Shown: piece after piece, positions 1,036 to 64,000 of the stretch
Position numbering within the stretch: position 1 is the first letter of the stretch
Layout of the letters: each line of letters opens with the position of its first letter
Assembly (NCBI GenBank): GCA_964187785.1
Contig: OZ076409.1
Location: 48,052,001-48,116,000, forward strand
Direction of reading: 5' to 3'
From: Amphiscolops sp. MND2022
Lineage: Eukaryota
DNA: 64,000 nt
Program-made: the position numbers and the translations under genes
The notes under the pieces: generated by a model
Seen by the model: the letters and a program-made list of their open reading frames with translations, nothing else
What the model was told of the DNA's origin: nothing
The model's database searches: none

Positions 1036-1671
1036 TCAATTTTTTAACAACCCTTTTAATTTTCCGCCCATATTCCATATGGGAATGTCATGAACGTTAC
1101 CGATGGACGGTCTACCTAATCGGTATCCATCATGTTGTTCATTTCTACAGTCAGCTTTAGCGTTTGGAATTCGCTTTTCCTCGGCATTTGCTTCCGCTCT
1201 CTCAACTGGGACTTCCCATCCCCTTCTGGTCTCTCGGCCCGATCCGGCCATTATGACATTCTGTATCTGAGGCAATACTTGACTGCTGATAGCCTCATTA
1301 ATGGCCCTTTGGATCTGCGTCCCAACATTATTCATCATTTCATCCATCTCACGGGATATCCTAGAGTTCAATTCGCTAGACAACCTATTTATCTCAGCTA
1401 GTGAGTTTGCTTCAACTGAGTTTTGGCCAAAATCGGCACTTGTCCTAGGTTCATCATTTCTGCAATTAGAAAATAGGCTTTCGCCCTCGTTGTCCAAGTT
1501 ATTACTTATGACACTTTCTCTCCTCCCAACGGAGTTATTGTCTAAACTCCTTTCTCTTTCAGTTCCATTGTAACGATCGCCTCCTAACATTATGTCTAGA
1601 TTTTCGATATCAGAAAGGATCTCTAGTCCTCTGGACTTTCTAGTCTTCTTTTGTTTTCTTGTAGTAGGCAT
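1036..1671 (-). CDS. 3'-LTR copy of the Gag N-terminus (195 aa) fused to 16 codons of flanking host intron
   Basis: Nearly identical to the first 195 aa of gag 14152-15864; diverges exactly at the LTR boundary 1086. Confidence 0.7.
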   Translation of the reverse strand: MPTTRKQKKTRKSRGLEILSDIENLDIMLGGDRYNGTERERSLDNNSVGRRESVISNNLDNEGESLFSNCRNDEPRTSADFGQNSVEANSLAEINRLSSELNSRISREMDEMMNNVGTQIQRAINEAISSQVLPQIQNVIMAGSGRETRRGWEVPVERAEANAEEKRIPNAKADCRNEQHDGYRLGRPSIGNVHDIPIWNMGGKLKGLLKN

Positions 1672-2795
1672 AAGGAAACTTCGAGTATAAAATTAAATTA
1701 GATTATATCTCGAAAATAACAGTGAAACCGTTTGTACTAATATGATAGTCTTTTTCAGAAGAGAGCAAATAAGGAAGTGTCTCCTCTCTCAAAGGCACGG
1801 GTATTTATACCCCCGAAAGAGTGACACTCTCATTCCTTACATTCTTTGACTAAGACAATACCATATGACTGCATTTTTGATGGTCACAGGATGAACGCTA
1901 TCCATTTCAAATATTATACATCAAAGGGACAATCATTCAACCGTTAGCACCGTTTACATATTTGGCAAAATATTTTCATTGAACAGGTATTTGTTGATGT
2001 AGGTGCACATACTTTAGCACGTGACGGCACAACAAATATGTTTAGTCTAAATACCTTTCATGGGTACAATGACAAAAGGCCTGATAAGGCAATAATATCA
2101 AATTTCATGCAACAGCTATTTTAGAACAAAATTGGATAACTATCCGTTAATGGTACAACAAAACATCAATTAACACTTCAGATTAGTACTTCATGATCAA
2201 CTAAATATCATTATATGAAATTAGCATCAATCACAAGTGCTTTGTTTATGGCAGACTGAATAGTCGAATTAAGCCGTCTGCCTGAACGGCATTAATAGCA
2301 CTTTCATCCGGTTTGTACAAAGGCCGTAATCGGCAAAAGAGAATAAAGCACACGAAAATGAAGGCCTCTGATTGGCTAATTGAGTGAGCGCAAGTGACGC
2401 TAGCAAGAAAATACAGGAGTCCATTTGAACTCGTTTCCGTATTTTCTTTAAGTTGCTTACCATAATCTTTGATTATTATTACATCGCATTGACAATACAA
2501 CAGCACAACACAATCTATGTTAACAGACTAATATACACTTAACATTCAGGACTAAGGTCGATCATAAACAATCAATAAGTGCAATAATTCTAAGTTTTGG
2601 TGATAAGCGAATACGTCCCGGTACGGCCCTTTTGGCTTTTTCTAAAATAATACGGCAACAAAACACATGAGCAATGTAAAAGTTTAAGAGATAGTTTTAG
2701 TTTACTTTAATAGATAGGGAGAGTTCCTGGGGCCACATCCTGACCAACAGCCGTTGTTGTAATCCTTGTGCCGTCACAGGCGGCAGCCTGCGACA
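1086..2795 (-). repeat. 3' LTR of copy 1 (1710 bp)
   Basis: Matches 15279-16987 with about a dozen substitutions and one 1-bp indel (by eye); element-strand termini TGTCG...TGACA. Confidence 0.96.
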
Positions 2796-3477
2796 CAGCG
2801 GGTGTAATGAAAAGAAGACTGCCTGCATTAAGACCATTGATGTAGGCTTCTTTCCTGAGAGCTGTTATGTAAGCGGGTTCGCTCCTTGGAGTTGAGACTT
2901 CCATGTATTTGTTTATCTTTATGGATTTTATTTCATCCACAGATTTTCCACAAACCATACAGCTTGTGCTCCTTTGGGAGCTGATATCAGTGTAAGGCAA
3001 CGCATTTTGTATGTGGAAAGAAGCATGGAATCCGCTATTTTCGGGTTGTATCACCGGCGTATCCATAGACGGCCCTCTCTCATGAGCGGGGGGCGAAAGC
3101 GGTGACTCTAACACAGGCAGAATCGTCTTGCATAATTCTATCCTCCTCTTCGTGTTGCCTCAAGACGGAGCATAGCATAGTTTCTCGTCGAAGTAGGTTT
3201 TGTCCAACTTCGGTGTGGTTTGCACGTCTGAAGGCACAGAGCTAGGACCAGGTTCATCGCTTGCCGTCGTCATTCTTCTGCCGGCTATTGGAATTGGCTC
3301 AGCTCGGACTTGAGTTTCAATCCTCCTCACCATCTCTTCTGTGTCCGTAGACCAGTCTGAGTCCCATCCGTCAGAGGTTTCTTCATCACTGCTGATGTAG
3401 ATTACAGAGTCTCCCGATGAGTCAGAACTGAACTCCAAAGAACCAAAGAGTTTTCTCGCTTTATTAAATCTTTCCAT
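2707..3477 (-). CDS. Accessory ORF (~256 codons, one in-frame TGA at 3160-3162): acidic SIM-like motif, SPLSPP, CxxCGKS; C-terminus lies inside the 3' LTR
   Basis: ORFs 3160-3477 and 2707-3114 are in the same frame and joined by open codons GNTKRRIELCKTILP; homologues at 32570-33515 and 63532-64000. Confidence 0.8.
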
Positions 3478-4419
3478 TATTAGTTTTTTCGCAATTTTGG
3501 AGCTAATGAGGCGACTGATTGTTGTATGAATAGAGGTAGAATGAATTCACTGAAATTCCGTGGAATGCCGAGTTAGGACAATTTCCCGGGTTCCCCGTTC
3601 GGCGGCAAATACTTAGGTTAATCGTCCCGATTCGTCGTAAACTTTCCCGAATGGCTTTTCCAGCGGCATTCCTTCTTTGAATTTCAGGTGTCGGCCTACT
3701 CACCATCATCCTCTTAAGTGGTAGCGAGATGAGTTTTCAAGTCGATATCAACAAATAACTTCACTTCAAGTGGGTAATTAACGGGTTGTTTGCCGGTAGT
3801 TAACGACTCGCGTTACCTAGTTTTCTCAAAATGGCTCCAGCCAATCAGGAACTCTCGTTGATGAAATAAAAAATGAATAGATAAATGAATAAATAAAATG
3901 GCGAAAATCATAACTGGAGTAACCCAAAATGGCGAAATTCTAATCAGGAGTAACTGGGATAACGGAACAAAACAACAAAACAAAATAAGGTAAATGGTCA
4001 TAACCGGCCACTAACTAAAATCAAGTTGTAACTAACGAATGTTCTCTGTACATTTCGCTGGCAGACTCCATGTACAATTTTAAATATGTAAATAATCATA
4101 GAATATTAGTCTGGTAAATCTCTTCAGCCACGAACTCCAACTTTTCATTCTCAATAATTACATTAACCAATTCCTCTGACATCTGTATTTGTTAAATTCA
4201 TATCATTCATACTTGTATTCCTGCTGCTACATACATCCATATCCGTTCCCGGCTCCGTTATTGTCTCGTCTTTCTACGAGGACATCTTGTGCTTCCCTTT
4301 CTCTCAGCCGTACCCGGCCTGACTACACTACTCCTATCAGCTGGGTCCAAATAGTTACCTTGGTGACAGCGGCTCAAAAGGAACATGTCTTCAAATTCAG
4401 GTTGGTCTGGATTTTCATT

Positions 4420-4556
4420 ATTGAACTAGTTTAGCTTGATCAGGGCTAGACTATGTTCATATCAGCTTCCTGTTTCCAATAGCAAACACGTGATAACATG
4501 TTTCCGTTCAAATTTTCAAATCACTTCCGGAAGGTTTCTAACGCGGTAAATGGATT
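4420..4556 (+). promoter_or_regulatory. Putative internal promoter block upstream of the antisense gene, with a palindromic ETS-like ACTTCCGGAAG
   Basis: TTGAACTAG, AGCTTGATCAGGGCT, CTTCCTGT and ACTTCCGGAAG are conserved in order at 34448-34572 in the diverged copy 2. Confidence 0.6.
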
Positions 4557-7500
4557 TCTTTCAAGGAAGCTCACCGCCTACGTTCATCTCTTTCTGTTTA
4601 GAAAATCAGAATGAAGATGATCAACAAGTACCAGCCAACACCGAGGAAGGCATACCTGCTCAACTCAACCAAGTGTCGACCCAGATTGTCCTTTCAGAGA
4701 GTGCGCCAATCTCGGCCCTTTCTCCTCCTTCTTTCCACCCGACACGGAACTTATTCTCTCAGGTTCAGACTGCTGTTGATTCCCCTTTCAGCACTGACAG
4801 CAACGTAGATGTGACGGCCTATGCTACTGAAATGGTGCAACGAATGGAGGCGGCTCGAACAGCCTCAGAAGATATAACAAGTCAGGCTGCTACAGTATTC
4901 CCCAAGGCAACGGGAAATGCAGATGATTTAACCCCCAGTCCACCCACAGATCCTAGGAGGACCAGTACACCAAAATCTGGCAACCAACACCCAACTGAAT
5001 CTTCAAATCTGTCTCAGCTTGAAATGAATTTGAAGATTGTTGAGACCACAGAGACTGGGTTCCCTGAGTTACAGCCCACAACAAATGCTTTGAAGGAGAA
5101 TGCCGGGGCTTCCTTATTTCAGGCTGAGGAAGATTCCTCCTCGACCTTCAGCGGACCTCCTCCACTTCCTGGAAAACCGGCCCAATCAACCAGTTGTGGA
5201 AGTGACATTGATACTCCAGGGGAAATGTCTGGGCTGGACAACCTCCCTCCTCTCTATGGAGTTGTCCCAGGCTACTCTGAGCTCGAATCTGAAAAAGGTA
5301 CCGAAACGGAACTAGAAGAATGCCTCAACAACCAGCCTGGGACATCCAGAATGACCCTTGAAGAGCCATTGAGAGAACTATCAGGGCGCAGTCGGGCTAT
5401 CCTGAAGCAGTATTTTGAGGCGGAAAACGCATACACCTTCCCAGTGGGTCACAGAACTGTAGCTTTCACTGAGCCACAGATATACCATCTGTTGCGTGTT
5501 TTAACAGACGAGGCCATTAATATGACTTGCTCCACTATGGAAAGAATGGTCATCGGAGCCGTAAAGGGGACACCAGCCACTGCTCCTTCAAGGACAAAAC
5601 ATTTCCTAACCCGGACACGTGTCCAGACTCCCAAGCCTATGCAGTCAGGAAATTCAAGCTCCGAGGAAGCCATAACCGACCCCGGACAAGATTCAGAATC
5701 TCATGGAGATTTTAGTGCACTGTTTGAGGTAGGGGACATTTCTATGCCGGAAGACAGCGATAGTTCAGGTGAGATGGCTCTGATAGCTGACACTTTAAGA
5801 AAGTCGGCCTTCGATAGTGCCGGAATTGGCTAAAAGCCACACCTACACTCCAGTTCAGCAGTAGAAGGAATTGAGTCGACAGGTCACAGTAGTTTGGACG
5901 CCACGCTATCTGAACTGAGGGACCAACCCATGTCACAAAAATCATCATTGAAGAAGCCCTGCAAAAAGGTGGTTCGACCCAAAAGAGCTTCAAGGCGAGG
6001 GGTGCCCATGCGAGAGGAATTCTTCTCGAAAATCGGCTGGACACGATCGTTTATTTCAGGTCCAGCAGATCCACTGCACAACCCGCACATGGTTTGGTGC
6101 CACATGTGCAAAAAGAATTTCTCAATAAAGACAAAAGGAGTAGTCGAGATCCTGAGGCACCACATGACAGAAAGGCATCTGCGCCGGGACCAGCGTTGGC
6201 GCTATGAACATCTTAAGAGCGTGGACCCTGTCACAGGCAAAATTCATCATAGAGTTAGAGGTAGGAACGGGAAGATCCTCAGCAAGGCGGAACTAGCTCA
6301 AGAATTACCAAATTTCATCCACACTGAACTTATTGATGTAGGAGAAAGATTTCCGTTTTATGAGGACTATCTCAGAGGAAACACAGCTGCACTGGTAACT
6401 CCCCAATCCCGGGATAGGACCCAAATTCACCTCATCGGAGATTTCAACCAGAGACAGGGAGACATTGCTGTGCTCCGAAATTTGTGGTCACGAGTTGGGT
6501 CTTTCACTGAATACCAGGCTGCTTTCCGTGATTTCGATTGGAGTGAAGACAGAATAATGGTAAGCATATTTTGTTCGTCCTGACTCATTGTCGGTATACG
6601 CAGATACACTCATACTTATATATGTAAATATTTAGGCCTTGTGCGTGTATATAGGCGTTGGACTTACGGATAACATTTGTATTGCCCATTTTAGGCCATA
6701 TTCCAGCACATTTTCAATTGTGTCATGGAAGATATTGCCGAACATGTCACTTCTTCTCAACACTACTCCATTGAATTTGAAGACAGAGGGGCAAATCGAC
6801 TGATGTCCCTGCGCTTCTGGAAAGGAACAAAGCTGTGCAGAGTTTTTATTTGCCGAAGTGCACTACCCGCGTCTGAACTCTCAGGAGAATTTGGATCCTT
6901 GTCCCGGCTATTATCAGTAGTGTCGACCGGTCCGGATATGGTCGCTTGTTCAGGTTGTCCCGTGGACTTCATTCGGACTATTGATCACCACTCCTCCTAC
7001 TCTTACGGAATCCAAAGCTGCTTCCGCTTTGAATTGCTCGACCTGCAACTACTGATGCACAAATTCACCTACAGCGTGTTTGGGAGGATCGACATGTTCT
7101 CTGTACTCCAGTGTCTCTTAGTCTCCCTTGGGGGGTCTACCACCGAAGACTGGGTCCGAGGAACTCCCGAATTAACTTGTGTTAGTATCTCTTGTTTTAC
7201 TGCTGTAGGAGGATAGAAAGGTATGGGTGGCAGTCAAGGTATACGATCTGTCTCTTAAAATCATGCTTTATTTAGGCTATTACCACTTGCAAGCTGGAAG
7301 TGGACAGGCTCCCTGATTTGTGTCGAGATCTACTTAAGCGATGGAAGCAAATCCTCCGCTATCTTTCACTCCACTCCCGACTTCAAGAAAACCAAGGAGT
7401 ACACAACAAGGTCCAGAGCTTTGAGTGGTCCTTGATTTCCGATGACTTCTTCGCCGTCCGACTGGAGTTTTTTCAACGGCTCGTCAGTGACTGTAAGTAT

Positions 7501-8726
7501 ACAGCTCTCTTGAGTATTTCTGTCATATGTCCGGGCTTGAGTATTTTGGTTTTGTGTTTTCAGACGTCTCGAGTTTTGTCACCAACCTTGCACGCAGGCG
7601 GGATGCTACCTTCCATCTTTGCGGGGAGGTCTGCAGGTTCATAAGCCGACTCTGCTTCCGCGTATACCAGCCTGACACCGTCCCCCTTGAAAGCGCCTGG
7701 TTCCATCTCCTAGATTTCATGGTCAGCGACGGAAAGTTCTTGGAGGATGGCGAATTTCTCATAAGGCTCAACATGACGAATAAAGTTACTGCCTCAAGCA
7801 ACTTGAAAGCCGCTGGACTGCACTTCAATAAGAAGTCAAGTAAGGCAGCCATTGACAAAACGGCTGAGACGGCCAAAGCTGATTTCGCCAACAGTGCAAA
7901 GAAGTACATTGAGTACCTCCTGGGAGCTGTTCTGCAACATCCGGGTCTCAGTTCGGACCCCATTAAGGGATTAGCAGCCTTCGACCCTTATATCATGATG
8001 AAGAGACCAACCGAAGTGGCCCTTCGTCATTTTGGCATTTTATGTTCAACTTTCCAATTGCGCTCTTGGGTTACAGCAGCGAATGAGGCTCTATGCCGGG
8101 ACCAGTATCTAGCCTTACTGGACTATCTTCGGACAAACCATGGTTCTGGCCCTAGTCTTGCCTTAGAGTCGTTGGACCTAATAGACTTTCTCATGGGGCT
8201 TGAATTCCTCCAATCGAACGAGCTTATCTTCCATCTCTTCAAGTTATGTTGTTTGTGTCTTACGTCAGTCAGCCCTCAGTATCCAAGTGTGTTCATGGGA
8301 AATATAGATACTACTGATTTCCAGTCTCGAGTAGCGGACGTAATCCTGCCCTGTCAGAGCTATCTGTCTGAGGTCACCGATTCCTTAGCTCTCTGTTGTA
8401 CAGAGGCCAGTCTTGACAAGTTCTACCTCCTTTCTGCTTCATTTGGCCAGTCTGGGTTCTCTGCCGATTACGATCCTTGGACTTATGTGGATACCTTCGG
8501 CCGCTCAGTTATTTACAAGTCTCTCGTTTCTTCTCATCGTTCTGTTTCCTCGGGGACGGAAGTACGTTCTAAATGTGCAGTGGCAGCCGATACTTCCTCC
8601 GTCAAAGATGTGCCAGCTGTCCAATTGCCTAGTGACCGTAAACGAAGGCGAATGGATAAAAGCCAATCCCGTTCGAGGTCCTCCTCTGTAGTGATGGAAC
8701 CCACAACTAGCAGCTCTAAATCTTAA
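4550..8726 (+). CDS. Antisense 4-exon gene (~1291 codons): disordered N-terminus, BED-type zinc finger, degenerate hAT-transposase-like body; one in-frame TAA at 5831-5833
   Basis: Exons 4550-6559, 6695-7180, 7276-7492 and 7564-8726. Donors GTAAGC/GTTAGT/GTAAGT and acceptors TTTTAG/TTTAG/TTTCAG (phases 0,0,1) join the listed ORFs in frame. CHMC-x17-HHMTERH finger at 6098-6178. Confidence 0.85.
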
Positions 8727-8966: not shown

Positions 8967-11900
8967 CTAGTATCTGAAGTCTTCTGAGTAGTTTGGGTTG
9001 GGGTTAGGCCTGAGATTATATTTCCCTCCTCTAGGGCTCAGACTTTCATTTCTAGCATCATTCTCCGATATTTCGGGCACGATAATATCATCCCCCCTAT
9101 TTGGAGAGATGTTTGCATCATTTTCATTCAACGAATTTCTCTCTGAAAAAATTTCATCATTTTTCGGTCCACTTGCCGTACTCGGTAAAGATTTTTCTTG
9201 GTTTTTCGGGGAAACGGCCGGATTCGGCCAATCAGATTTGTTATTTTCTGTCACTGCAGTAGCTTCATTTCTTTTAGTGACGTCATCATCTAAGCGTTCA
9301 TTCCGGTTGTGTGCCGCGTTGTCGTTGTTTAATTCTTCTCGCGTGATTATGTAATCCGCTTCATTCTCGTCTACGTCATTTGTATTCGTTTCTGCCGCGT
9401 TCGGCTGTTCGGCATTCGGTAAGCTAGTCGGAATAGGCGCACTGCCTCGTGTGATTAGCTGCTCGCCAAAGTCGGTTTCCCACGTTATGATATATAAATC
9501 ATCTTGCGGAATGATAATTTCTTCGTCTGGCTGCAACTGTTGTTCTCGGAAATTGTCCTCAAGCGGTTGATTAGGGACAAACCTTTTAAGGCGAATGCGA
9601 TGTAAAATTTGAGTTTTGTTCGTATTAATTCGTCGCACTATATAATTTTCATTTGGCAAGACTTTTTGGACTACGAATGGTCCAACCCAACGGTAATCAC
9701 GGAATGGGATTTTTGCTCCTTGATTGTCCGCTTTCGGCTGTAAGACAAAACAGTATTCTTTCTCCTTTAATGGAGCGGCTTTTGCTTTGCGGTCGTAATA
9801 TTCTTTGTACTTGATATACGACTGCATTATGTTCTGCTTCGTTTTGTCAATCAAGATTTTTGTCCGATTTTGGATCTCTTCAGCAAATTCGGTTGTGGGA
9901 TTGATCTGCTCGTTTGGATTATTTCCAAGCTTGTGATCCAGAATATTGTGAGGAATTCTGCCATGGAATACCCTTGTTGGCTCACAACCGATGCTGGCAT
10001 GATAACTGGTATTATAATTAAGTACTGCTAATGGCAAGTATTTGTGCCATTGTCGGCGGTATTCCCCACATGCCATTTTGAGATTTGTCTTTAATGAGGC
10101 ATGGGTCCGCTCTAATTTGCCAATTGTTTGCGGATGCTTTGTTGTTGCACATTTGAGTGTGATGCCCAAAATCTGCGTAACCTCCGCAATAATCGTAGAA
10201 GTGAATGCAGTACCCTTATCAGTAATAAGAGTTGTTGGTAGATATGCATGCTTGGTCATTATGTCAATGAGCGCTTTTGCCACATTGATTGCTGATGCGT
10301 CCGTAAGAGGGTAAGCGAACAAATATCTGGAGAAAACATCAATTGCTGTTAGATCGTTTTCATACCCTCCACTTGGGGGAAGATTCGGCAATAGGTCAAT
10401 TTGCATGGCGTCTTCAGGTCCAAGGTCCCATTCGGGCAAATTGAGCAGCTCAGGTGTGATCGTTGCGTTATGGACTCTTTTGTCTCTGGCACATTGTTCG
10501 CACCCTTCTACCCACTTTTTGACGTGTTTAGCCATGCTAGGGTAGTAATACCTCTGTCTAATTTACTGCAACATTTTGGAAATCCCGGGATGTTTATGCG
10601 CTGTTCCGTGAAGGGACTGAAGCAATTCCCGAAGTAGGTGTTGCGGGAGCAAAATTTGATGGTATTTAACATTCCCTGTTTCATCAAAATATTGCCTCGT
10701 CAGGATTTCGTCCTTGAGTACAATTCGTTCCAGATTATTTGCATAGTGTCTATATCGGGTATCCTGTTGCAGTATGTTTTCTGAATAGTCTTCATGAAGG
10801 AGCTTTGCCTTCAATTGTTGCAATACTGCATCTTTGGACTGCTCGATGATTATCTGGTTTGTTTTCTTGAATCGGACTTGAATGTCTGGTTGTTGTTTGA
10901 CCAGATTGGTTGACAGAGTTTGTATGGTAACAGTGGGCTCATCAGTCATTGGATTTTTCCTGATTGTTTCTTTTCTTGCCCAATACTGTTCCTCTGTCTC
11001 GTCGTCATCATTCGTATAGAATATTTGTTCTTCCTGTGATACCCCCGCAGATTGGACATTTATCTCAATGGGTAGAGTTTGCACGTCCTCACGGATTTTC
11101 ATGATTAATTTATCCTTCGGATCTGCCTCCAATCGGGACAAATAGTCAGCTGCTGTGTTCTGTGCCCCCGGGATATGCGCTATGACAAAATTGAACTGAA
11201 TCACATAATCACATGCATTCCACAGGGCTGGGGGTATTATTTTCGTTTGAAAAAATCTCGTCACAGCTTTGTTGTCTGTGAGGATAATGACCGGTTTGGG
11301 CGCACCCCAGAATATATGCCCAAATTCTTTGAATGCAAAATAAATTGCAAGAAACTCTTTGGCATATATTGACATCTTGATTTGGGCTGGGGTGAAGGTT
11401 TTTGAGCCATATGCCACGGGTGCATAGGATTTTCGGAGAGATGTGAATTTCTGGTTCGGATCGTCTTCTATTAAGACCGCATATCCAGCTGCACCAAAAC
11501 TTGCGTCAGTCATTAGTGCTATCTGTTTGTTCGGGATAGGTTGTTGTAGGGCCAAGTCGCAACATTTGTCTAGCGCCCTATTGATTTCTTCGAATTGTTG
11601 GACTAATTCTTTCGATACTAGGACTTTTTCGTCACTTTTGAGCATCTTGTAGAATGGAGCAAGGCGTTCGGAGAGTCTTGGGACATAATTCCTGTAATAG
11701 TTTAGGAATCCCAAATAGCGCTGTAAAGCCTTTTTCGACTTTGGGAATTTGGTCTTTTCCAGAAAGTTTTGCACGTTCTGTTTCTGAGGTTTGACGCCTT
11801 GTGGGGTAATAGTCCGTCCGAGAAAATCAATTTCTTTTGCACCGAAGTGACATTTGTGCATTGTCAACTTAAGGCCTGCTTCCTGAATGCATTTGAACGT

Positions 11901-14161
11901 GGCTCTCAGGTTCGTCATGAGGTGATAAACATCATTGGCTGCGATGCCGATATCGTCCACATACTGGGCACACTGATCCGCTTTAATGACTTTGTCGAGG
12001 TATTCTCTCATGAAACTCGAGAATGCGGATAGTGACCGACTAAGGCCTTGTGCCAAGCGTCTGTAAGCGAATGTGCGACTGGCAAAATTGAAAGCCAACA
12101 TTTCGATTGAACGTTGGTCAGCCATTGGTAGGCAGTGGTATGCCTGCGAACAGTCTAATTTACAGAACAGTTTTTTGCCTGCCAAGTGTTGGGCAGCATC
12201 AACTAGTGTACTGACGGGATGATTGTTGTTGATATAATCATCTGAGATGAGGTTGTTGATTTTTCTCAAGTCAACCAAGAGTCGGAGTTTCCCGTTCGGT
12301 TTCTTCTGTGCAAATATTGGGCTCGCATATTTCGAGAACGGTAGGGTGGTGATGATGCCATATTTGTGTAACATGGCTAATTCGACTAGGATGTCCTCCT
12401 TCAGATTGATAGGAGCTGGAAGGCTTTGACTATAGGCTGGGGAATCGTCCTTAGGTGTCAGTTTCACTTTGAATTCCTCGTTCATGCCTATATCAAATCG
12501 GTGTCGTGCAAAGATGTCATGGAATTCCACTAGCAAGTCCTCAATTTTCTCCTTCTCTTCAGGAGTAAGGGTGGAATCTTTCCAGTCAAAGTTTTCTAAG
12601 AATTTTGCACGCGATTCTGCATCTGTGGTGGGGTCGAGTGTCTCCAGGTCCTGTAAGGCCTGTAACTCGCGTAGGATTCGTTTTTGTATAGGTGTGTGTT
12701 CCTCAGGATTTCCAGGGTTTTCTGGAGTTGGGAACCAATAATTTTCGGAGTTTTGTGGATTTCTATTGGTTTTGATGAGACTGCTGACATAATGGGCTGC
12801 TTGCTCCTGGTCATTCTGCAAAAGGTGCCAGGTTGATGCCGGATCTACCGGTTTGACATACTTCATCTGTTCTGGCGTCATGACAGAAAAATTGGCAATA
12901 TGTAGTCCCTTTTTGAGTTTATAAGGGTGGTCTGTGAAATTGTTCACTGGTATCAATATATTGCCATCATTCAGAGTGACCAAAGCTGGGCAAAATGTGA
13001 TGTCGCCTTCCTCATGTAGGAGGTCGCTCGGTTGCAAAAATCCAGTGACAGCATTCTCAGGGTAGAGTAGGGAATTGGTCCTAATTAGGACTTTGTCATT
13101 TGGTGGAATTGTTATCTCAATAGGGTTGAGAATTGGTTCTAATACATTTGAATACTTATGGTCAGCCGTTTTAAGCTGCATTGAAAAGAACGGGAAATTC
13201 AGTATCCCTTGTCTCATGTCCAGCACTGTATGGTTTCTTTGAAGGAACATTAGTCCAATGATCGGTCCTGTCAAAAGATTTCATGGAACTCAATGTCACC
13301 AACTTCGAATTTGAGCTCTATGGTACTCTTAGGAGTTTCCAGTTGCCCATTAGCGACCATGATTTGGAAGTTCGGAGGGGGACCTTCTCGGATAACAGAT
13401 TGTGGAGATAGAAGGCGGATTTTCCGGAGGTCCATTTCAGGGATTGCACTGGAGAGTGCTCCGGTGTCTATTAATCCATCAATGGTCAATTCCCCAAAGT
13501 CCATTGGGAAATAAAGCATGCGTTTTTTGCATTTGAGGTCGATGTTGGTTGACAGGGGTATACAGTCTGGTTCACCTTCTCTGGTGATAAGTACGTTCTG
13601 GAATTGTTTTTCGTCTAGCAATGATTGTGGCGTGGTTTCACCACTGTTTTCAGGATTCTCGGTCCCCAGTGGGTTTGGGAACACTGGGTGGTTTGTACCA
13701 TCATTCATTTGCCAGTTTTCAATTAGCGCTCGTGTTTTCTTGTTATGGGTAATTGGAGGATTCTCGTGGACTGTTCTGTTGTAATGGTCAATATCGTCCA
13801 GGACATATTGAAATTGCAGTGAATGTTGGTTGTAAAGCTCGGTGTCCCAATAGGGATCTCTGCCGTAGTCTGGATCGATGTATGTTGGATTGTAATCATC
13901 GATTAGGGGAATAGGCCTGAACCGGGTAGTAAAGGTGGTGGTGTAATCAGGGTCCCAAACAGGAATTGGTTTCTGGAATAAATGGGTGTTATTGTAGGTG
14001 ATGATGGTAGCTTTTTCCATCTGCTGCTGCCAGACAACAGAGGGGTAGCCCATCAATTGCTGATTGTATTGGTGGAAGGTTTGCGTTGGGGGGTCCGATC
14101 TGATGTATTGTCGGACAGATATCAGTTCGTTGTATTGGAGTCGTGGCGAAATTAGTTTTTT
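8967..14161 (-). pseudogene. pol: pol polyprotein: protease (DTGA), dUTPase-like spacer, RT (YVDD), RNase H (TDAS), integrase (HHCC, DDE, GPF) with acidic tail
   Basis: Motifs seen in ORFs 13271-14056, 10563-13274 and 8967-10535. Broken by a short frameshifting deletion near 13274 (copy 2 retains IVMEKLTGP) and a TAA at 10563-10565. Confidence 0.95.
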
Positions 14162-15864
14162 GACTCATCATTAGAAGATGAGGATTGTGAGTTTGAAGAT
14201 GTTGACTTGTTTTGCGGTTTCTGCGCTTTTGAATTGGGCTTACCGTCATTGGCATCATCTGGTCTGGTGCGTTTGGGTTTGAGATGTGCACCAGCGCCTT
14301 GCCAGCATCTTTCTTCCGGGTGGTTCTTTTTACCACAAGTGCCACACTCCGGATACGTCTTTTTCTGAGTCTGTTTGCCTTGTTGGGCATCTTTTTCCTT
14401 TTTCTTCTTCAATTTTTCACAGTCTTTGACCATATGGCCCTTCTCCTTGCAATAGTTGCAAGTGATGTCCGACATTTGCCCAGTAGTTAGAGGAGTCTTG
14501 GATTTTGTTGTCGAGGAGGTCATTGTGGCCATTGGTAGGTCGTCTGATTCCTCTAGGGCATTTAGTTCTAACTCTCTCTCTAAATGAGCAACTATTTCGT
14601 CATAAGAGCCATTTTCGAGTCTGGCCATGTTTATAGACCGCTTCAGTTTTGGTGGCAGTTTTGCGTAGAGCAAACTGTCAATCATTTTTTGCGCGTGATC
14701 CCCGAATGCTTTTTCTGCCCCTTGATTTAATTCTTCAAGGAAATCTGGCAGTTTCATCGTGTTGGGATCAAAGACCAGACGGTGCCATTTATGTTTGGCA
14801 GTCGCTTGTGATTCGGGCTTGACGTATTTTCGTCTGAATATGACCAATACGTCCTCTAAAGTCTGTCTATTACTCGAGCTGATGTTCCGGAAGGTTTGGA
14901 GAGCATTCTTCCTCAGCAATGAGTGGAAGTGATTTATTTTCATCTGTTCCGTCATTTCCGGTTGCATCTTGATCATCGTATGGAACAGGTCCTCAAACAG
15001 TTCGAATTTTTCACTCTTGCCGTCAAAAGTCATTGTGTTGGAATTGACTGGGCGTATAGTGAGTTGTTGGGCTGTCGGCCTATTCTGCATCGTTGTCAAG
15101 ACATCTGCCAGTCGAGTAATAGGGTCGGTTTGAGCAGCCGGAGCATTTCTCTCTTGCGCTGGGATCGTCGTGTCAAGGTTGATGTCCTCATAGGACCTGT
15201 CGAGATGGTTTCTGGATGAGACTCGTCCCGTGAGAAACTCGGGAACTTGAAGTGGAGATTCGTTGTCTCCTGTCACCATGTCATGAACGTTACCGATGGA
15301 CGGTCTACCTAATCGGTATCCATCATGTTGTTCATTTCTACAGTCAGCTTTAGCGTTTGGAATTCGCTGTTCCTCGGCATTTGCTTCCGCTCTCTCAACT
15401 GGGACTTCCCATCCCCTTCTGGTCTCTCGGCCCGATCCGGCCATTATGACATTCTGTATCTGAGGCAATACTTGACTGCTGATAGCCTCATTAATGGCCC
15501 TTTGGATCTGCGTCCCAACATTATTCATCATTTCATCCATCTCACGGGATATCCTAGAGTTCAATTCGCTAGACAACCTATTTATCTCAGCTAGTGAGTT
15601 TGCTTCAACTGAGTTTTGGCCAAAATCGGCACTTGTCCTAGGTTCATCATTTCTGCAATTAGAAAATAGGCTTTCGCCCTCGTTGTCCAAGTTATTACTT
15701 ATGACACTTTCTCTCCTCCCAACGGAGTTATTGTCTAAACTCCTTTCTCCTTCAGTTCCATTGTAACGATCGCCTCCTAACATTATGTCTAGATTTTCGA
15801 TATCAGAAAGGATCTCTAGTCCTCTGGACTTTCTAGTCTTCTTTTGTTTTCTTGTAGTAGGCAT
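14152..15864 (-). CDS. gag: Gag, 570 aa, with two CCHC zinc knuckles; first 195 codons lie inside the 5' LTR
   Basis: CNYCKEKGHMVKDC and CGTCGKKNHPEERC knuckles; ORF directly precedes pol. Confidence 0.93.
   Translation of the reverse strand: MPTTRKQKKTRKSRGLEILSDIENLDIMLGGDRYNGTEGERSLDNNSVGRRESVISNNLDNEGESLFSNCRNDEPRTSADFGQNSVEANSLAEINRLSSELNSRISREMDEMMNNVGTQIQRAINEAISSQVLPQIQNVIMAGSGRETRRGWEVPVERAEANAEEQRIPNAKADCRNEQHDGYRLGRPSIGNVHDMVTGDNESPLQVPEFLTGRVSSRNHLDRSYEDINLDTTIPAQERNAPAAQTDPITRLADVLTTMQNRPTAQQLTIRPVNSNTMTFDGKSEKFELFEDLFHTMIKMQPEMTEQMKINHFHSLLRKNALQTFRNISSSNRQTLEDVLVIFRRKYVKPESQATAKHKWHRLVFDPNTMKLPDFLEELNQGAEKAFGDHAQKMIDSLLYAKLPPKLKRSINMARLENGSYDEIVAHLERELELNALEESDDLPMATMTSSTTKSKTPLTTGQMSDITCNYCKEKGHMVKDCEKLKKKKEKDAQQGKQTQKKTYPECGTCGKKNHPEERCWQGAGAHLKPKRTRPDDANDGKPNSKAQKPQNKSTSSNSQSSSSNDESKN
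14155..14161 (-). other. -1 ribosomal frameshift slippery site A AAA AAC at the gag stop
   Basis: The -1 frame (KLISPRLQYNELISVRQYIRSDPP...) is open into the protease ORF; AAAAAAC-TAA is conserved in copy 2 at 45471-45480. Confidence 0.85.
15267..15278 (-). other. Primer-binding site TGGTGACAGGAG (tRNA-Leu-like)
   Basis: Immediately follows the LTR-terminal CA; identical 12-mer in copy 2 (45941-45952); resembles the tRNA-Leu PBS TGGTGTCAGGAG. Confidence 0.8.
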
Positions 15865-16987
15865 AAGGAAACTTCGAGTATAAAATTAAATTAGATTATA
15901 TCTCGAAAATAACAGTGAAACCGTTTGTACTAATATGATAGTCTTTTTCAGAAGAGAGCAAATTAAGAAGTGTCTCCTCTCTCAAAGGCACGGGTATTTA
16001 TACCCCCGAAAGAGTGACACTCTCATTCCTTACATTCTTTGACTAAGACAATATCATATGACTGCATTTTTGATGGTCACAGGATGAACGCTATCCATTT
16101 CAAATATTATACATCAAAGGGACAATCTTTCAACCGTTAGCACCGTTTACATATTTGGCAAAATATTTTCATTGAACAGGTATTTGTTGATGTAGGTGCA
16201 CATACTTTAGCACGTGACGGCACAACAAATATGTTTAGTCTAAATACCTTTCATGGGTACAATGACAAAAGGCCTGATAAGGCAATAATATCAAATTTCA
16301 TGCAACAGCTATTTTAGAACAAAATTGGATAACTATCCGTTAATGGTACAACAAAACATCAATTAACACTTCAGATTAGTACTTCATGATCAACTAAATA
16401 TCATTATATGAAATTAGCATCAATCACAAGTGCTTTGTTTATGGCAGACTGAATAGTCGAATTAAGTCGTCTGCCTGAACGGCATTAATAGCACTTCATC
16501 CGGTTTGTACAAAGGCCGTAATCGGCAAAAGAGAATAAAGCACACGAAAATGAAGGCCTCTGATTGGCTAATTGAGTGAGCGCAAGTGACGCTAGCAAGA
16601 AAATACAGGAGTCCATTTGATCTCGTTTCCGTATTTTCTTTAAGTTGCTTACCATAATCTTTGATTATTATTACATCGCATTGATAATACAACAGCACAA
16701 CACAATCTATGTTAACAGACTAATATACACTTAACATTCAGGACTAAGGTCGATCATAAATAATCAATAAGTGCAATAATTCTAAGTTTTGGTGATAAGG
16801 GAATACGTCCCGGTACGGCCCTTTTGGCTTTTTCTAAAATAATACGGCAACAAAACACATGAGCAATGTAAAAGTTTAAGAGAAAGTTTTAGTTTACTTT
16901 AATAGATAGGGAGAGTTCCTGGGGCCACATCCTGACCAACAGCCGTTGTTGTAATCCTTGTGCCGTCACAGGCGGCAGCCTGCGACA
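15279..16987 (-). repeat. 5' LTR of copy 1 (1709 bp)
   Basis: Direct repeat of 1086-2795; followed by the PBS on the element strand. Confidence 0.96.
15995..16002 (-). promoter_or_regulatory. Candidate LTR TATA box TATAAATA (also at 1802-1809)
   Basis: About 130 nt upstream of the gag ATG and flanked by GC-rich bases. Confidence 0.5.
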
Positions 16988-18590: not shown

Positions 18591-21539
18591 TCAATAAGTT
18601 CCGAGCAAAACCACCAGGTATGGAGTACGCCTCACAAGAAAAATGTATTTGCAGTTTCCCACATGAAGGAGAAAACCTGAGAATGACACAAAATCAGAGA
18701 GAATTCAACGGTTTTTTGGTTTTTCGTAAGTTCTTCATGCGTTCCGTGGGTTAGAAGGGTGTTCATTTTAATTCAACAACAACAAAACTCAGTTTGCAAT
18801 AGGTTTTCAGGAAGAGACATCTGTAGTTTCAGGTTGGAAAAGTTCTCACATTGACTAACAAAGTTGGTCGGAAATACCATCTTTTACAGTTTTTCTCACT
18901 TCTGGTGTCTTTATGTGCAACTATAACACGAGCCGTTTCTTGAACTTGCAAAGGACACCAATTTCAAACGTTCTCCCTCTTCTCAGTGTCAAAATTTACC
19001 CCAATAAATACGCTTGAGACTCGGAAACCTCTTTTTAGTCGGTGCTTTTCGTAGAAAACGCAGGCAATAGCAGTGACTTTTCTTTTTTTTAGTCGGCGCT
19101 TTTCGAAGAAAACGCAGACTAGAGCAGTGATTTTTTTAGGACCAACGAAGTGACAGATTTTAAGATCTTTAGAGGTTAATTGCACTAACACTAACTGCCA
19201 CACTACTTCTACTGGCACTTGAGATAGAGGTTAATTAGGCTTTGATATATATATTTTCGAAAGATCAAATGTGTGGAAAAAAGTACTGACAAAAAGTCGT
19301 AACTGTAGTCGCTCTTTCGTGAAGAAAACGGCTGACTGATATGGTATGTTTGCCGTGTTAGGCATTGATATCAACATAGTTCAACAACAGAACATTTAGA
19401 TACTTGGCGTGTTTATAAATAACAGGCCCCCTCCGGGGCACAATATTATTCCTCTTTTAGGTTTTCATATTCAAAAATTGAAGGATAGAATCGATTGAAT
19501 CTGGAATAACCATACGACCTTGTTAATTTATTATATAGCCCACCATAGTTCACTGTACCAGTTTACACGGCTTTTATTTCGTCTCGGACTAACGAAATTA
19601 TAACTACTAAGCGTAGACGAAGTTTCGCATTAGGATTTTCGAATGTATGCGCAGCTCTCGGCGAACGAATAATTTACACCCATTTGTTCTCATATCATGA
19701 ACTCGGTCTGCGAGTAATTAGCACTCATTAGCTTCATTCCATTAACTCGGCCTACGAATGCATAGAAATGAATCGTCGTCAGAACTGTCGAACCAAATAT
19801 CTAAATTTTCCAGTAGGTACTCGGATCGCGAACGGAAGTCGGTTGAAAAAAAGTTGCAACTTTCTAAATTCGATATTATTCCTGCTATTGCCGAAATAAT
19901 AGGTTAGGTGTTTCCTTTTAAAATGTGCTGAGATGAATTATAATCTTTCTTTTTTTCGAACTTTTTTGTATTTTCATAGAGAATTGTCTATTCTTGAACA
20001 TCAAATTTTTGTCGTTGTATAACAGTTTTGGGGGGGGGGTTGTTTTGGAAAATATCGCGCTGCTCAATAAGTTCCGAGCAAAACCACCAGGTATGGAGTA
20101 GGCCTCACAAGGAAAATGTATTTGCAGTTTCCCACATGAAGGAGAAAACCTGAGAATGACACAAAATCAGAGAGAATTCAACGGTTTTTTGGTTTTTCGT
20201 AAGTTCTTCATGCTTTCCGTGGGTTAGAAGGGTGTTCATTTTAATTCAACAACAACAAAACTCAGTTTGCAATAGGTTTTCAAGAAGAGACATCTATAGT
20301 TTCAGGTTGGAAAAGTTTCTCACATTGACAACAAAGTTGGTCGGAAATACCATCTTTTACAGTTTTTCTCACTTCTGGTGTCTTTATGTGCAACTATAAC
20401 ACGAGCCGTTTCTTGAACTTGCAAAGGACACCAATTTCAAACGTTCTCCCTCTTCTCAGTGTCAAAATTTACCCCAATAAATACGCTTGAGACTCGGAAA
20501 CCTCTTTTTAGTCGGTGCTTTTTGTAGAAAACGCAGGCAATAGCAGTGACTTTTCTTTTTTTTAGTCGGCGCTTTTCGTAGAAAACGCAGACTAGAGCAG
20601 TGATTTTTTTAAGACCAACGAAGTGACAGATTTTATGATCTTTAGAGGTTAATTGCACTAACACTAACTGCCACACTACTTCTACTGGCACTTGAGATAG
20701 AGGTTAATTAGGCTTTGATATAAATATTTTCGAAAGATCAAATGTGTGGAAAAAAGTACTGACAAAAAGTCGTAACTGTAGTCGCTCTTTCGTGAAGAAA
20801 ACGGCTGACTGATATGGTATGTTTGGTGTGTTAGGCATTGATATCAACATAGTTCAACAACAGAACATTTAGATACTTAGCGTGTTTATAAATAACAGGC
20901 CCCCTCCGGGGCACAATATTATTACTCTTTTAGGTTTTCATATTCAAAAATTGAAGGATAGAATCGATTGAATCTGGAATAACCATACGACCTTGTTAAT
21001 TTATTATATAGCCCACCATAGTTCACTGTACCAGTTTACACGGCTTTTATTTCGTCTCGGACTAACGAAATTATAACTACTAAGCGTAGACGAAGTTTCG
21101 CATTAGGATTTTCGAATGTATGCGCAGCTCTCGGCGAACGAATAATTTACACCCATTTGTTCTCATATCATGAACTCGGTCTGCGAGTAATTAGCACTCA
21201 TTAGCTTCATTCCATTAACTCGGCCTACGAATGCATAGAAATGAATCGTCGTCAGAACTGTCGAACCAAATATCTAAATTTTCCAGTAGGTACTCGGATC
21301 GCGAACGGAAGTCGGTTGAAAAAAAGTTGCAACTTTCTAAATTCGATATTATTCCTGCTATTGCCGAAATAAAAGGTTAGGTGTTTCCTTTTAAAATGTG
21401 CTGAGATGAATTATAATCTTTCTTTTTTTCGAACTTTTTTGTATTTTCATAGAGAATTGTCTATTCTTGAACATCAAATTTTTGTCGTTGTATAACAGCT
21501 TGGGGGGGGGGGGTGGGTTGGAAAATATCTCGCTGCTCA
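18591..21539. repeat. Recent tandem duplication, 2 x ~1473 bp
   Basis: 18591-20063 is nearly identical to 20064-21539; TCA microhomology at the junction. Confidence 0.95.
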
Positions 21540-31150: not shown

Positions 31151-32640
31151 TGTAAGGACTACGGTTATCTGTGTATCTCAGATCACATGCAGATTTGGAG
31201 TCCTTTCCTTCTTTGCTATTCTAGTTTTCAACCAAGTTGTCCTTCCTCTCTTCTCCTGACTATTAGGGGACGAGCTAGCCTCAGTGTCCCTATTTCCTGA
31301 TGATGACATTGAACTCAGGATAGTACATATTTCTGGAATGACTCTATCGGATATAGCTGAAATTGTGGCCCTGTTAATCTGAGCATGTACCATAGACATC
31401 ATGAAATCCATTTCTTGAGAAAGTCTCAAGTTGACTTCATTGATGAAAATTTCTCATGATACCAAAATACCCTCATGTCTATGAACATTGTTTTCAAAAT
31501 TTTGGCGCCGGAATTCAATTGTTAGGGGAAAATCTTCCCTTGGAGGTAAAGAAACTCAGTGTCGCTTTGAACAGATGATTCCCCGATTGCACTAGCTAGT
31601 TCTCTCTCAATTGGATTGATGTTGTCACTTCCCACCATTATGTCTAGTTATCAAAGTCAGACATCATGTACATCTCTCTAGATCTCCTAGCTTTTGCTTT
31701 TGTCACCTCGTAGAAGGCAAAAGAAATGGCTACAAGGAAAGAAGCAATTCGAGTCTTTCTTTTATGAAACAAAATTGCTATCGACTGTATAACTGAACAA
31801 TGGATAGATTCAACGAATTGTGTCGGGACTCAAGGTCCCAGGTATTATCATATACATTCTTGCATGACTAGCAACTTTACTGAAGTCCTAATCTTAAAAT
31901 AGCCTGAAGGGCTTTCTGAAAGTAGCAGTGACTATTTTTTAGAATCAATGACGTCATGTTTATAGGTTGACGTCAAAGCAACTGCACGCCGACACAGAAG
32001 ATTAAAGGACTTGGAGGCATACCTAATATACATATATCCCTTAAGGACAAGCAACTATACAAACGAATAACACTTCATAGAATTTTGCATGTAATTATTT
32101 AATACATGAAAAATAGTATGTGACTATCAAGCTTCTGCAGTTTTTAACACAACTCCTGTATTAGCCATGTCATCTGGTATATATAGCCTACGGTTTAACT
32201 ATAGTGTGATATTTAATAAACAGCGCCTTTAATATAAATTGGGACTGGACTTGTCTTGAGTACCACGCTTGCTAAGATGAATGGCCTTACTTGGCCTTTA
32301 ATTCAATAAAGTTCAGCATTAATAAATGAACGCCTCTGATTGGCTAAAACATGAATTAGACGTGTTGTCCGCGGCGACAGGCAAGGAAACATTTGAACAC
32401 GTTTCCTTTGCATGTACGCCTTGGTGTCCAATTATCTTTACATACAACAGTGATAAAATACCACCACATTCAACTTACATGTACTTTCGAAACATTGAAT
32501 TGATATCAATAAAATTTCAGATTCAAAGTTTGCAGTTTGATTTTGGACAGCATGTCCGATTTCCTTAATCTAGCGGAGGGTGGTATAGTGATTGCATGAG
32601 ATGGAAGACCAGTTCTCAACGCTTGCGGCAGCCTGTGACA
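31151..32640 (-). repeat. 3' LTR of copy 2 (1490 bp)
   Basis: TGTAAGG...TGTGACA on the plus strand, matching 45953 onward; PPT-like AGGGGGAG next to it on the element strand (32641-32648). Confidence 0.85.
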
Positions 32641-33515
32641 CTCCCCCTGGCATGAGAAGAAACGTCCCTGCGGACATACCATCCAAGAAGGGTCTTCGTC
32701 TTGCTTCTTTTTCGGCTAAGGTCTCGTTTGGGTTTTTTGTTTTGTTTAGGTAGTCGTTGACTGCCTCTGACTAGATTTGATGGACTGATTTACCGCACAC
32801 CACACAGTCCGAACATTCATCAGAGCCGGAGTATCTGATACAACCATTTCATTAAAATCGTTTGAAATTAACTCTGAGACTGTATGAGTAGAGTAGTAAC
32901 TGCTAGGCGCGTTTGACCGGGTCTTCTATCTTCGATAGGAGGAGACAGCGGGGTATATACTTGAGGTCTTAAATTCCGACAGACATTAATAGGGTGGTTA
33001 TTTCTGACCCTTTCATCGCATGCTATTGCGCCGTTCCCACGACCGAGAATAAAAAACTTTTGATCTGAAGTGGGAAAAGGCTGTTCGTTAGGCCCCGGAG
33101 TACCGTTCCTCTTCTGTGCAGTAGTTGTCCCGATTGTCCATATAGTGACAGGATCAGCCAATTGCCATTGCATACATCTGGACAACACGTAAATGTCCTC
33201 TGATTCTTCATCTGACGAAGAGATCAATTCGTCTACTGAATCCGTACTAGAACAATCCATATGGTCGTCCTCATTGCTCGATAAGTAAAAAATTTTTGGC
33301 TCTGCATCAGATTGTGCGGCACCCACAAATTCCATTTGAAAAGTTTCGGATAAATTAGACATGAACCTCTCTCTTACTATCTTTTTAGCTTTTTTGGAAA
33401 ACGAATTTGTAGAGTAGGTTTTGAATTCCATGTTAAGGGTAGGCAGCCGAACAGTAAGACCAAAAATGAGTGATTGGTAATTTTCCTCGCTCGGATCCGC
33501 GAGAGATTCACCCAA
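32570..33515 (-). pseudogene. Accessory ORF homologue in copy 2
   Basis: IFYLSSNED, TPLSPP, CVVCGKSV and MPGGVSQAAA match VIYISSDEE, SPLSPP, CMVCGKSV and TPAVSQAAA of copy 1. Confidence 0.8.
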
Positions 33516-46517: not shown

Positions 46518-47170
46518 AAAAATGGTTACAAGGGAAGAAGCAATTTAAGCCTTCATCTTGTGAAACAAAACTGGTATCAGCTGTTTAGCTGGACAATGGA
46601 TAGTTTCAACGAATTTTGTCGGGACTCAAGGTCCCCGGTATTATCATATACATTCTTGCATGACTAGCAACTTTACTGAAGTCCTAATCTTAAAACAGCC
46701 TGAAGGGCTTTCTGAAAGTAGCAGTGACTATTTTTTAGAAACAATGACGTCATGTTTATAGGTTGACGTCAAAGCAACTGCAGGCCGACACAGAAGATTA
46801 AAGGACTTGGAGGCATACCTAATATACATATATCCCTTAAGGACAAGCAACAATACAAACGAAGAACACTTCATGGATTTTTACATGTAATCATATGTTA
46901 CATGAAAAATAGTATGTGACTATCAGGCTTCACCACTTTTCAACACAACTCCTTTATTAACCAAGTTTTCTGATATATAAAGGCTACCATTTAACTATAT
47001 TGTGACATTTAATAAGCAGCGCTTTTCTGGAAATTGGGACTCAGTGTCCAATTGTTTAGAGTGGCACGCTTGCTAAGATGAATGGCCGTACTCGGCCTTT
47101 AATTCAAAAAAGTACAGCATAATTAAAAGAATGCCTCTGACCGGCCAAATTGTGAATTGGACGCGCGACA
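45953..47170 (-). repeat. 5' LTR of copy 2 (shortened at its distal end)
   Basis: Similar to 31151-32380; similarity ends at ...GCGCGACA 47170. Confidence 0.8.
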
Positions 47171-61000: not shown

Positions 61001-61083
61001 CAAGTTTCGATGAGAATTCCATGTATGGAGATCAGGGATCCAAAAGTGGCTCTAAACCCCCTTCCCCTTCTCTTACTACTACT
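52040..61083. mobile_element. 9-kb palindromic (fold-back) element with Polinton/Maverick-like termini
   Basis: Starts AGTAGT and ends ACTACTACT, flanked on both sides by AATATT; the arms are reverse complements around a centre at ~57270-57303. Confidence 0.75.
57126..57450. repeat. ~78-bp tandem units, two per arm, at the palindrome centre
   Basis: TACAGCT-TTCAATGTTCAAATCTCTGTACCAA...AAGCAGG-GAGGCCA repeated, then mirrored. Confidence 0.85.
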
Positions 61084-63531: not shown

Positions 63532-64000
63532 ATGAGCCTCCCATTGGACTTGGATGATCTAATCACACCCCTAGTCAGCTCTTCTAACTTCTCTTCTGAT
63601 GAGAAAATGGAAGTGGACACAAATTCAGTAGCTCAATTATCAGACGATGAATTAGAGGTATTTGCGAGTTATATGAAAGTCCCAGTCTACCCTGCGCAGA
63701 CCATCGCGGGTAGGAAAATGAAAACGGATTTGTCAGGCTGCCGAGAAGACGGTAGGACTTACCTCTGTCCATACGAAAAAAAATGCTGGTTTGCCAGGGC
63801 AGTCAAGAAGTGATTACCTAAATATGGCAATATGGGAGCCGGTCCTAGCAATGTTCACACTGGAAGTGGTTGCCCAAATGGCCAATGAGCGGGACTCCAA
63901 CCAACACTTGACTCACCCTTGTCACCGCCACTTCATGAACAGGGACCCACACACTGTTGGTACGACTATGCGTGACCAAGTTTGATAGATAACTATACTC
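63532..64000 (+). pseudogene. Third homologue of the retrotransposon accessory ORF (element probably continues past the window)
   Basis: TIAGRKMKT vs PIAGRRMTT; YEKKCWFA vs DEKLCYAP; 63901 onward PTLDSPLSPPLHEQGP vs PVLESPLSPPAHERGP. Confidence 0.7.

Follow-up and report, generated by a model that had tools for sequence, protein, structure and literature searches.

Extra genes at the 3' end of retrotransposons with long terminal repeats (LTRs) form a known kind (PMC7264820). Here we describe such an accessory gene in a 64,000-nucleotide stretch of the genome of Amphiscolops sp. MND2022 (contig OZ076409.1, positions 48,052,001 to 48,116,000), referred to as the window, where it is carried by E1, a 15.9 kb Ty3/Gypsy LTR retrotransposon on the minus strand. 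Like the known extra 3' genes, some of which have nuclear products and a proposed regulatory role, it occurs family-wide, lies in the 3' internal region and has no known function. Unlike env-like additional open reading frames, it encodes no transmembrane-like stretch, runs into the LTR, stands head-to-head with an antisense gene and specifies a protein with phosphosite motifs and a pattern resembling the SUMO-interacting motif (SIM). Judged by its sequence, the protein is not env-like, shows no match to Nef, lacks a RING and matches no named family. We tentatively read it as a phosphorylated dimeric adaptor that would bind SUMO and blunt the silencing of its element, a reading in which we have less than even confidence.

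Lentiviral Nef is, like the present protein, small and partly disordered, with an acidic cluster and a Pro-rich segment, and its gene likewise overlaps the 3' LTR. The original prediction had described the present gene as Nef-positioned; the position is indeed alike, and no relationship to Nef emerged beyond it. A Gly2 myristoylation site occurs in 1/243 family members (some entries start upstream) and the window copy begins M-E, the Nef core domain gave no Pfam or PDB sequence match, and fold searches on low-confidence models returned nothing. CERV, from the Caenorhabditis elegans element Cer1, is likewise an accessory protein of an animal LTR retrotransposon: it is nuclear, has a Cys loop and an essential phosphorylated S214, is predicted to multimerise and is needed for export of genomic RNA (PMC10309623). 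Conserved cysteines and predicted self-assembly are shared with the protein described here; however, CERV has 517 amino acids (aa), three folded domains and sequence in common with Gag, whereas the accessory protein has ~260 aa, is 3'-encoded and predicted to be mostly disordered, and shows no match to its own element's Gag. The SLS-4 motif of ICP0 from herpes simplex virus 1 (IVISDS) offers another parallel, being a parasite-encoded hydrophobic core followed by Ser and acidic residues in a protein with a Cys-rich module elsewhere (PMC3174244), but the two proteins have no sequence relationship and ours has a single CxxC and no detected RING. In the Ty5 integrase targeting domain, as here, a short element-encoded motif ends in S-P-P and could find a BRCT-type reader in the host, yet it lies within integrase and not within a separate accessory protein. 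At the level of listings and abstracts, the open-access literature yielded no retrotransposon accessory protein that carries a SIM or attacks the SUMO-SIM step.

The accessory protein family

Searches with the E1 gene, with L001 (a relative found on a metagenome contig and 36% identical) and with a profile of distant members gave 201 clusters among 535 candidates, 625 among 742 and 753 among 7720, respectively, and the best 120-150 matches of each were taken for analysis. The searches also gave 370 representatives at 50% identity, and many of the matches may stem from one genome. Where given, the source of a match was ENA, save for one JGI entry, and no match was named or had a Pfam domain. 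Among metagenome contigs, a relative was present on one contig of 1310 bp, and the viral contigs searched held none. Of 493 proteins, 243 passed a filter for near-completeness, which asked for a CxxC, an end resembling SQAAA and a length of 225-345 aa, and 250 were dropped. Clustering of those that passed gave 13 clusters at 45% identity and 31 at 60%, with identities between subfamilies mostly of 26-50% and typically ~30%. Because the CxxC and SQAAA motifs belong to this filter, their counts within the 243 are circular. Without the motif filter, CxxCG was found in 64/72 and VSQAAA in 68/72 close relatives, and in 98/120 and 80/120 proteins of a second set.

Outside the LTR, E1 and L001 use the same codon at only 4/15 shared amino acids, and the spacing from CxxC to VSQ is 55 codons in E1, in L001 and in E2, a second element in the window. 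Since synonymous sites changed while amino acids were kept and the spacing stayed constant, selection appears to have acted on the protein. The accessory gene is almost certainly real, broken in E1 and open in hundreds of relatives. The original prediction had presented 2707..3477 as an open reading frame; a gene of 256 codons is present there, but a TGA at codon 106 splits the frame. All the motifs it quoted are present on the minus strand, namely VIYISSDEE (3405-3379), IAGRRM (3288), PLSPP (3102), CMVCGKSV (2961) and VSQAAA (2796), and all three of the diverged copies it counted were found. Some qualifications apply: IAGRRM is not a family-wide feature (IAGR in 38/72 close relatives), and the E2 copy is decayed and the third copy is a fragment without the SIM core.

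Across 110 aligned rows, conservation of Cys116, His155, Cys173, Cys176 and Cys234 is 84-99%, and this Cys/His set may bind zinc. With five widely kept Cys/His residues, one CxxC and no RING match, no RING with its eight zinc ligands was detected, and ubiquitin-ligase activity is therefore not indicated. No transmembrane segment was found among 31 representatives, one for each cluster at 60% identity (maximum 19-residue hydropathy 0.8-1.61). A SUMOylation consensus occurs in 67/243 family members and was not found in four segments of the antisense gene.

SIM-like motifs and a second putative phosphosite

SIMs are described as a hydrophobic core with an acidic or phosphorylated flank, linked to CK2, lying in disordered sequence and occurring in both orientations (PMC12751080). 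In the window copy the candidate is VIYISSDEE, and its surroundings (residues 11-37) have a predicted local distance difference test (pLDDT) value <50 in the model of a relative, i.e., predicted disorder. We take VIYISSDEE also to fit the CK2 consensus. Conservation of the motif across the family, on which the original prediction had been staked, was borne out. The parallel pattern (hydrophobic core, S, then S/D/E, then an acid) is present in 9/13 cluster representatives, compared with a mean of 0.23 and a maximum of 3 in 2000 shuffles, and in 166/243 members; a six-frame scan of the window (127,996 residues) met the strict form 16 times. The core itself (VIYI, at least three of four positions V/I/L-type) is found in 68/72 close relatives and 9/13 cluster representatives, and its context is similarly retained, with SS in 29/31 representatives and D/E at +3 in 25/29. 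The mean top-residue frequency at residues 25-32 is 0.67 vs. 0.28 and 0.33 in the flanks.

One clade (nine representatives, support 100/100) has lost the core and kept Y-x-S-S-D/E. Further downstream, its members carry the reverse SIM-like sequence acidic-I-E/Q-V-I/L in 7/9 rows, with near-matches in the other 2. Outside this switch clade, 21/21 representatives with the site have hydrophobic residues at -2 and -4 of the core. Counting either type, 13/13 cluster representatives (shuffle mean 1.84, maximum 7) and 204/243 members have a SIM-like motif. This complementary distribution of parallel and reverse patterns is the best indirect sign of a SIM being maintained, and suggests that it is. In the same clade, and in the window at 63596-63620, the SS-acidic site is followed by E/K-M-[DE]-[VI]-D, the strict pattern occurring in 5/31 representatives. 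L001 (555-1286) and its subfamily have T-P-P-T-S followed by LISDD, beside a second weak SIM-like stretch; this T-P-P-T-S we take to resemble the Fbw7 phosphodegron.

A second conserved site has the form P-hydrophobic-x-[DE]-[ST]-P-x-S-P-P and is found at the aligned position in 29/31 representatives, of which 27 have D/E at -1 and 22 have SPP; [ST]PxSP sites overall occur in 27/31. The PP2A-B56 pattern LxxIxE fits the window copy but was rejected as a family-wide motif, being present in only 4/31 representatives.

Predicted structure and self-pairing

In the predicted layout of the protein, a mostly disordered acidic arm bearing candidate docking sites under kinase control is joined to a small domain that pairs with itself. 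A first model had a mean pLDDT of 52 and a second, made for a 79%-identical relative with 110 natural sequences aligned, a mean of 60; in the latter only the helix pair 180-219 is confident (pLDDT 91-96 for blocks 181-210). Two copies of residues 105-256 of the same relative, modeled with zinc, scored 0.54 as a homodimer vs. 0.25 for the best control. The predicted interface is symmetric and centered on A211, G215 and G219, of which A211 is conserved in 109/110 rows, G215 in 103/110 and G219 in 102/110; Cys173 and Cys176 are not among its confidently predicted residues. For calibration, the dimer-score mark was reached by 21/30 solved dimers and 0/23 monomers from microbes and by 17/29 dimers and 0/30 monomers from eukaryotes. 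Taken together, the models predict that the C-terminal helical hairpin pairs with itself.

Comparisons with known folds and families were largely negative. Foldseek returned no match at E <= 0.001 in the PDB for the first model or among viral structures for the second, both being low-confidence models, and VIA-align gave only generic helical hairpins (best Z 4.9) for the domain as part of the larger model, not folded alone. Pfam matches of family proteins were all sub-threshold: a Spin-doc finger (7/55, best E 0.0052) and a Rad50 hook (1/14, a weak match at E 0.023) were both rejected as driven by the CxxC. Of two PDB sequence searches, one gave nothing and the other four matches at E 1.6-2.2. 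A feature-atlas search produced three weak matches (<0.9) to clusters partly annotated DDE_Tnp_1_7, which we read as reflecting N-terminal composition, and none for the C-terminal part. In profile comparison the protein matched neither the Gag of E1 (probability 0.8%) nor the last antisense frame.

Proposed function and alternative explanations

On balance, the conservation of its SIM-like motifs suggests that the accessory protein probably binds SUMO. Its place in silencing can be pictured as follows. CK2 would phosphorylate the serines after the hydrophobic core, and a proline-directed kinase would set the [ST]P-x-SPP switch. The dimer would present two SIM arms and so bind avidly to SUMO-modified chromatin, where, by analogy with ICP0, it would compete against repressors that depend on a SIM, such as SetDB1/Wde. 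In silencing guided by PIWI-interacting RNA, SetDB1/Wde are recruited by SUMO-SIM contacts (10.1101/533091). As a guess, the antisense gene's BED-finger protein might deliver it to the element's own DNA. The fullest version of this scheme, which we regard as improbable in its entirety, is a two-gene counter-silencing module driven by one internal head-to-head promoter, in which a tamed BED/hAT-derived DNA binder would find the element and a zinc-stabilized dimeric SUMO decoy would displace SIM-dependent repressors there, one clade having exchanged the decoy's SIM at one site for a SIM at a second site.

Several observations count against an adaptor of this kind. The SIM is a loose motif (PMC12751080), and the shuffle comparison is optimistic because the patterns were written after the sequences had been viewed. 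The reverse pattern alone is weak (6/13 representatives, shuffle mean 1.65, maximum 6, and thus not above the maximum), the switch between motif types is a single event, and the reverse motif sits where a predicted helix begins. In 59-68% of rows the core has V/I/L, whereas S-S-D/E is better kept (95% and 92%), and the core-less clade retains S-S-D/E together with Tyr at -3 in 8/8, as would fit a phosphosite reader other than SUMO. A nuclear localization signal-like K[KR]x[KR] is present in only 3/31 representatives. As to the dimer, only 1/7 eukaryotic dimers without an older solved relative reached the score mark; contact agreement between the runs is at least 46%, their pLDDT is 47-49 and they were folded without the alignment; and conservation of the interface is only slightly higher than that of the rest of the domain (0.58 vs. 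0.51). Finally, Wde and SetDB1 act as silencers through their SIMs (10.1101/533091), and a SIM therefore does not reveal in which direction the effect goes.

The closest competitor is a different reader. Both putative phosphosites could bind a scaffold with BRCT domains, TOPBP1 for example, and so couple the element's integration or gap repair to the replication and repair machinery, or could steer target choice as Ty5 integrase does via Sir4. Ligands of TOPBP1 BRCT1/2 have a hydrophobic residue at -3 and often Pro at +1 (VEEpSP and VAEpTP in Treslin), or are CK2 sites with a hydrophobic triplet at -5/-4/-3 (RAD9; PMC6175577), and Ty5 integrase binds the H-BRCT region of Sir4 for heterochromatin targeting (PMC6394760). 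Here the fit of the motifs to TOPBP1-type docking nearly equals that to SUMO: position -3 is hydrophobic in 27/29 at the first site, including 8/8 in the clade without a SIM core, and in 24/29 at the second, where -1 is D/E in 27/29. The Ty5 integrase targeting motif, moreover, has an S-P-P. However, a hydrophobic -3 is a low-information rule that requires neither the Pro at -4 (28/29) and the further S-P-P of the second site nor the hydrophobic -2 of the first, and the protein is separate from integrase, to which any link would be hypothetical; we consider BRCT docking an unlikely, if serious, alternative to SUMO binding. The same SIM evidence would serve a protein that binds SUMO and aids silencing, tethering the element to SUMO-rich heterochromatin or recruiting repressors and so limiting copy number, and host silencing cofactors do use SIMs in this direction (10.1101/533091). 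This we judge somewhat less likely again. Pfam-type searches gave neither a repressor domain nor a known co-repressor motif, and the lineage has many members and inserted recently, with 12 mismatches over 1710 LTR columns, which makes strong self-restraint less likely.

A regulator resembling Rev or CERV, which would multimerise, bind element RNA through the Cys/His zinc module and, controlled by kinases, promote the expression of genomic RNA or its export, could draw on the conserved Cys/His residues, the [ST]PxSP sites and the predicted self-pairing. The protein, however, is acidic, has half the length of CERV and is encoded at the 3' end, the apparent introns of the element lie on the antisense strand, and the main text of the CERV paper does not use the word SUMO (PMC10309623); we rate such a role as more doubtful still. 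Very improbable, in our assessment, is that the frame is open mainly through overlapping DNA or RNA signals and that its motifs arise incidentally from a composition rich in Ser and acidic residues. That explanation does hold for VSQAAACDG, with 9/9 codons the same inside the LTR against the 4/15 outside it, and all three window copies are broken. Yet amino acids outside the LTR were kept while synonymous sites changed, the 55-codon spacing is exact in all three DNAs compared, similar-length frames are open in hundreds of relatives at ~30% identity, and composition-preserving shuffles fail to yield the motifs. The SUMO-binding adaptor is thus the reading that we retain, at the tentative level given above.

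The carrier element and its surroundings

Along E1 the order is gag, pol, antisense gene, spacer and accessory gene (Table 1). The LTR pair differs by 12 mismatches and 1 gap across 1710 columns, with TG...CA ends and a 5-bp target duplication. Pfam placed RVT_1, RT_RNaseH and rve above cut-off, and the protease and zinc knuckle slightly below it. Since accessory gene, pol and antisense gene each hold a premature stop, this young copy is dead, despite LTRs that differ at only 12/1710 positions. Approximately 195 gag codons lie within the LTR (15279-15861), and the gag start is thereby duplicated in the 3' LTR (1086-1668). The primer-binding site TGGTGACAGGAG adjoins the LTR without a gap and in the gag frame. 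A polypurine tract directly before the 3' LTR was not found, purines making up 4/12 positions in E1 (2796-2815, minus), 9/12 in E2 and 5/12 in L001; E2 has AGGGGGAG there and L001 only GGGAG, and E1 was recently inserted yet lacks such a tract. The spacer between the two head-to-head genes could be a shared internal promoter. In it, a 36-codon stretch (4291-4398, minus) aligns at 33% with the N-terminal region of the E2 accessory gene and may be the decayed remnant of a second accessory gene.

Table 1 Features of E1 and of the other accessory gene copies in the window.
Feature	Position	Strand	Remark
3' LTR of E1	1086..2795	-	LTR-LTR repeat
Sense accessory gene of E1, 256 codons	2707..3477	-	final 89 nucleotides (nt) inside 3' LTR; same-length open relatives
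VSQAAACDG	2770..2796	-	overlaps first 26 nt of LTR; nucleotide-level constraint and hairpin
Two-helix hairpin 180-219, A-x3-G-x3-G face	2821..2940	-	predicted homodimer interface
CxxC knuckle (Cys173, Cys176), then Gly	2950..2961	-	
Conserved His155, candidate zinc ligand	3013..3015	-	29/31 representatives; 84% of 110 rows
I-x-x-C, then P-hydrophobic-x-[DE]-[ST]-P-x-S-P-P	3088..3141	-	candidate proline-directed double phosphosite
Premature TGA, codon 106	3160..3162	-	
Predicted helix 43-59	3301..3351	-	aligned position holds reverse SIM-like acidic-I-E/Q-V-I/L in one clade
Parallel phospho-SIM-like VIYISSDEE	3379..3405	-	also hydrophobic triplet at -5 to -3 of second Ser
1074-bp spacer between head-to-head accessory and antisense genes	3478..4551	.	
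Antisense gene, several reading frames	4552..8726	+	apparent introns; CxxC...H..H BED-like finger
Antisense gene stop	5831-5833	+	
Protease, reverse transcriptase (RT), RNase H, integrase	8967..14164	-	Ty3/Gypsy order
pol stop	10563-10565	-	
gag with zinc knuckle	14152..15861	-	start inside 5' LTR
5' LTR of E1	15279..16987	-	flanked, with 3' LTR, by target duplication GGGAA
Decayed accessory gene of E2	32624..33371	-	IFYLSSNED near 33293, EDIYVL at 33200, TPLSPP, CVVCGKS, VSQAAA
Third accessory copy, decayed fragment of reverse-SIM clade type	63560..64000	+	cut by window end

The VSQAAACDG stretch appears to be mostly a constraint on LTR-end DNA. It is identical at 27/27 nt between E1 and L001, and it folds into a hairpin in E1 (z -2.6) and L001 (z -1.7) that is not formed in E2; the hairpin-forming LTR start corresponds to 2772-2795 and 16964-16987. 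The first residue of VSQAAA is V or L in 237/238 because its codon must end in the LTR's TG, and this suggests the same LTR boundary family-wide. That the boundary falls within VSQAAA in both full copies, as had been proposed, is correct for E1, in which the 3' LTR begins at the TG within the Val codon. It could not be carried over to E2, whose boundary at 32640 is placed by sequence likeness only, because the 5' LTR is truncated and the element is not full (the 5' LTR ends at 47163 and its LTR match stops at 32362). The E2 accessory gene has a frameshift and stops. The third copy also has stops, with SSNFSSDEKM in place of a hydrophobic SIM core and the reverse-type DELEVF at 63646. Elsewhere in the window, a foldback-like long inverted repeat (52054-61061) has arms ~90% complementary over several kb and 79-bp repeats at its center, and a 1473-bp unit is tandemly duplicated at 98% identity (18591-21539).

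Implications

Contacts between SUMO and SIMs are central to the silencing of transposons in animals, a step targeted by several viruses. The counter-silencing module proposed here would, if real, mean that a transposon encodes its own means of attacking this SUMO step. If the reader were a BRCT scaffold instead, the family would represent a new route coupling an LTR element to host chromatin or repair. In either case, its 13 subfamilies, which have diverged deeply, and its two alternative kinds of motif are ready material for peptide tests.
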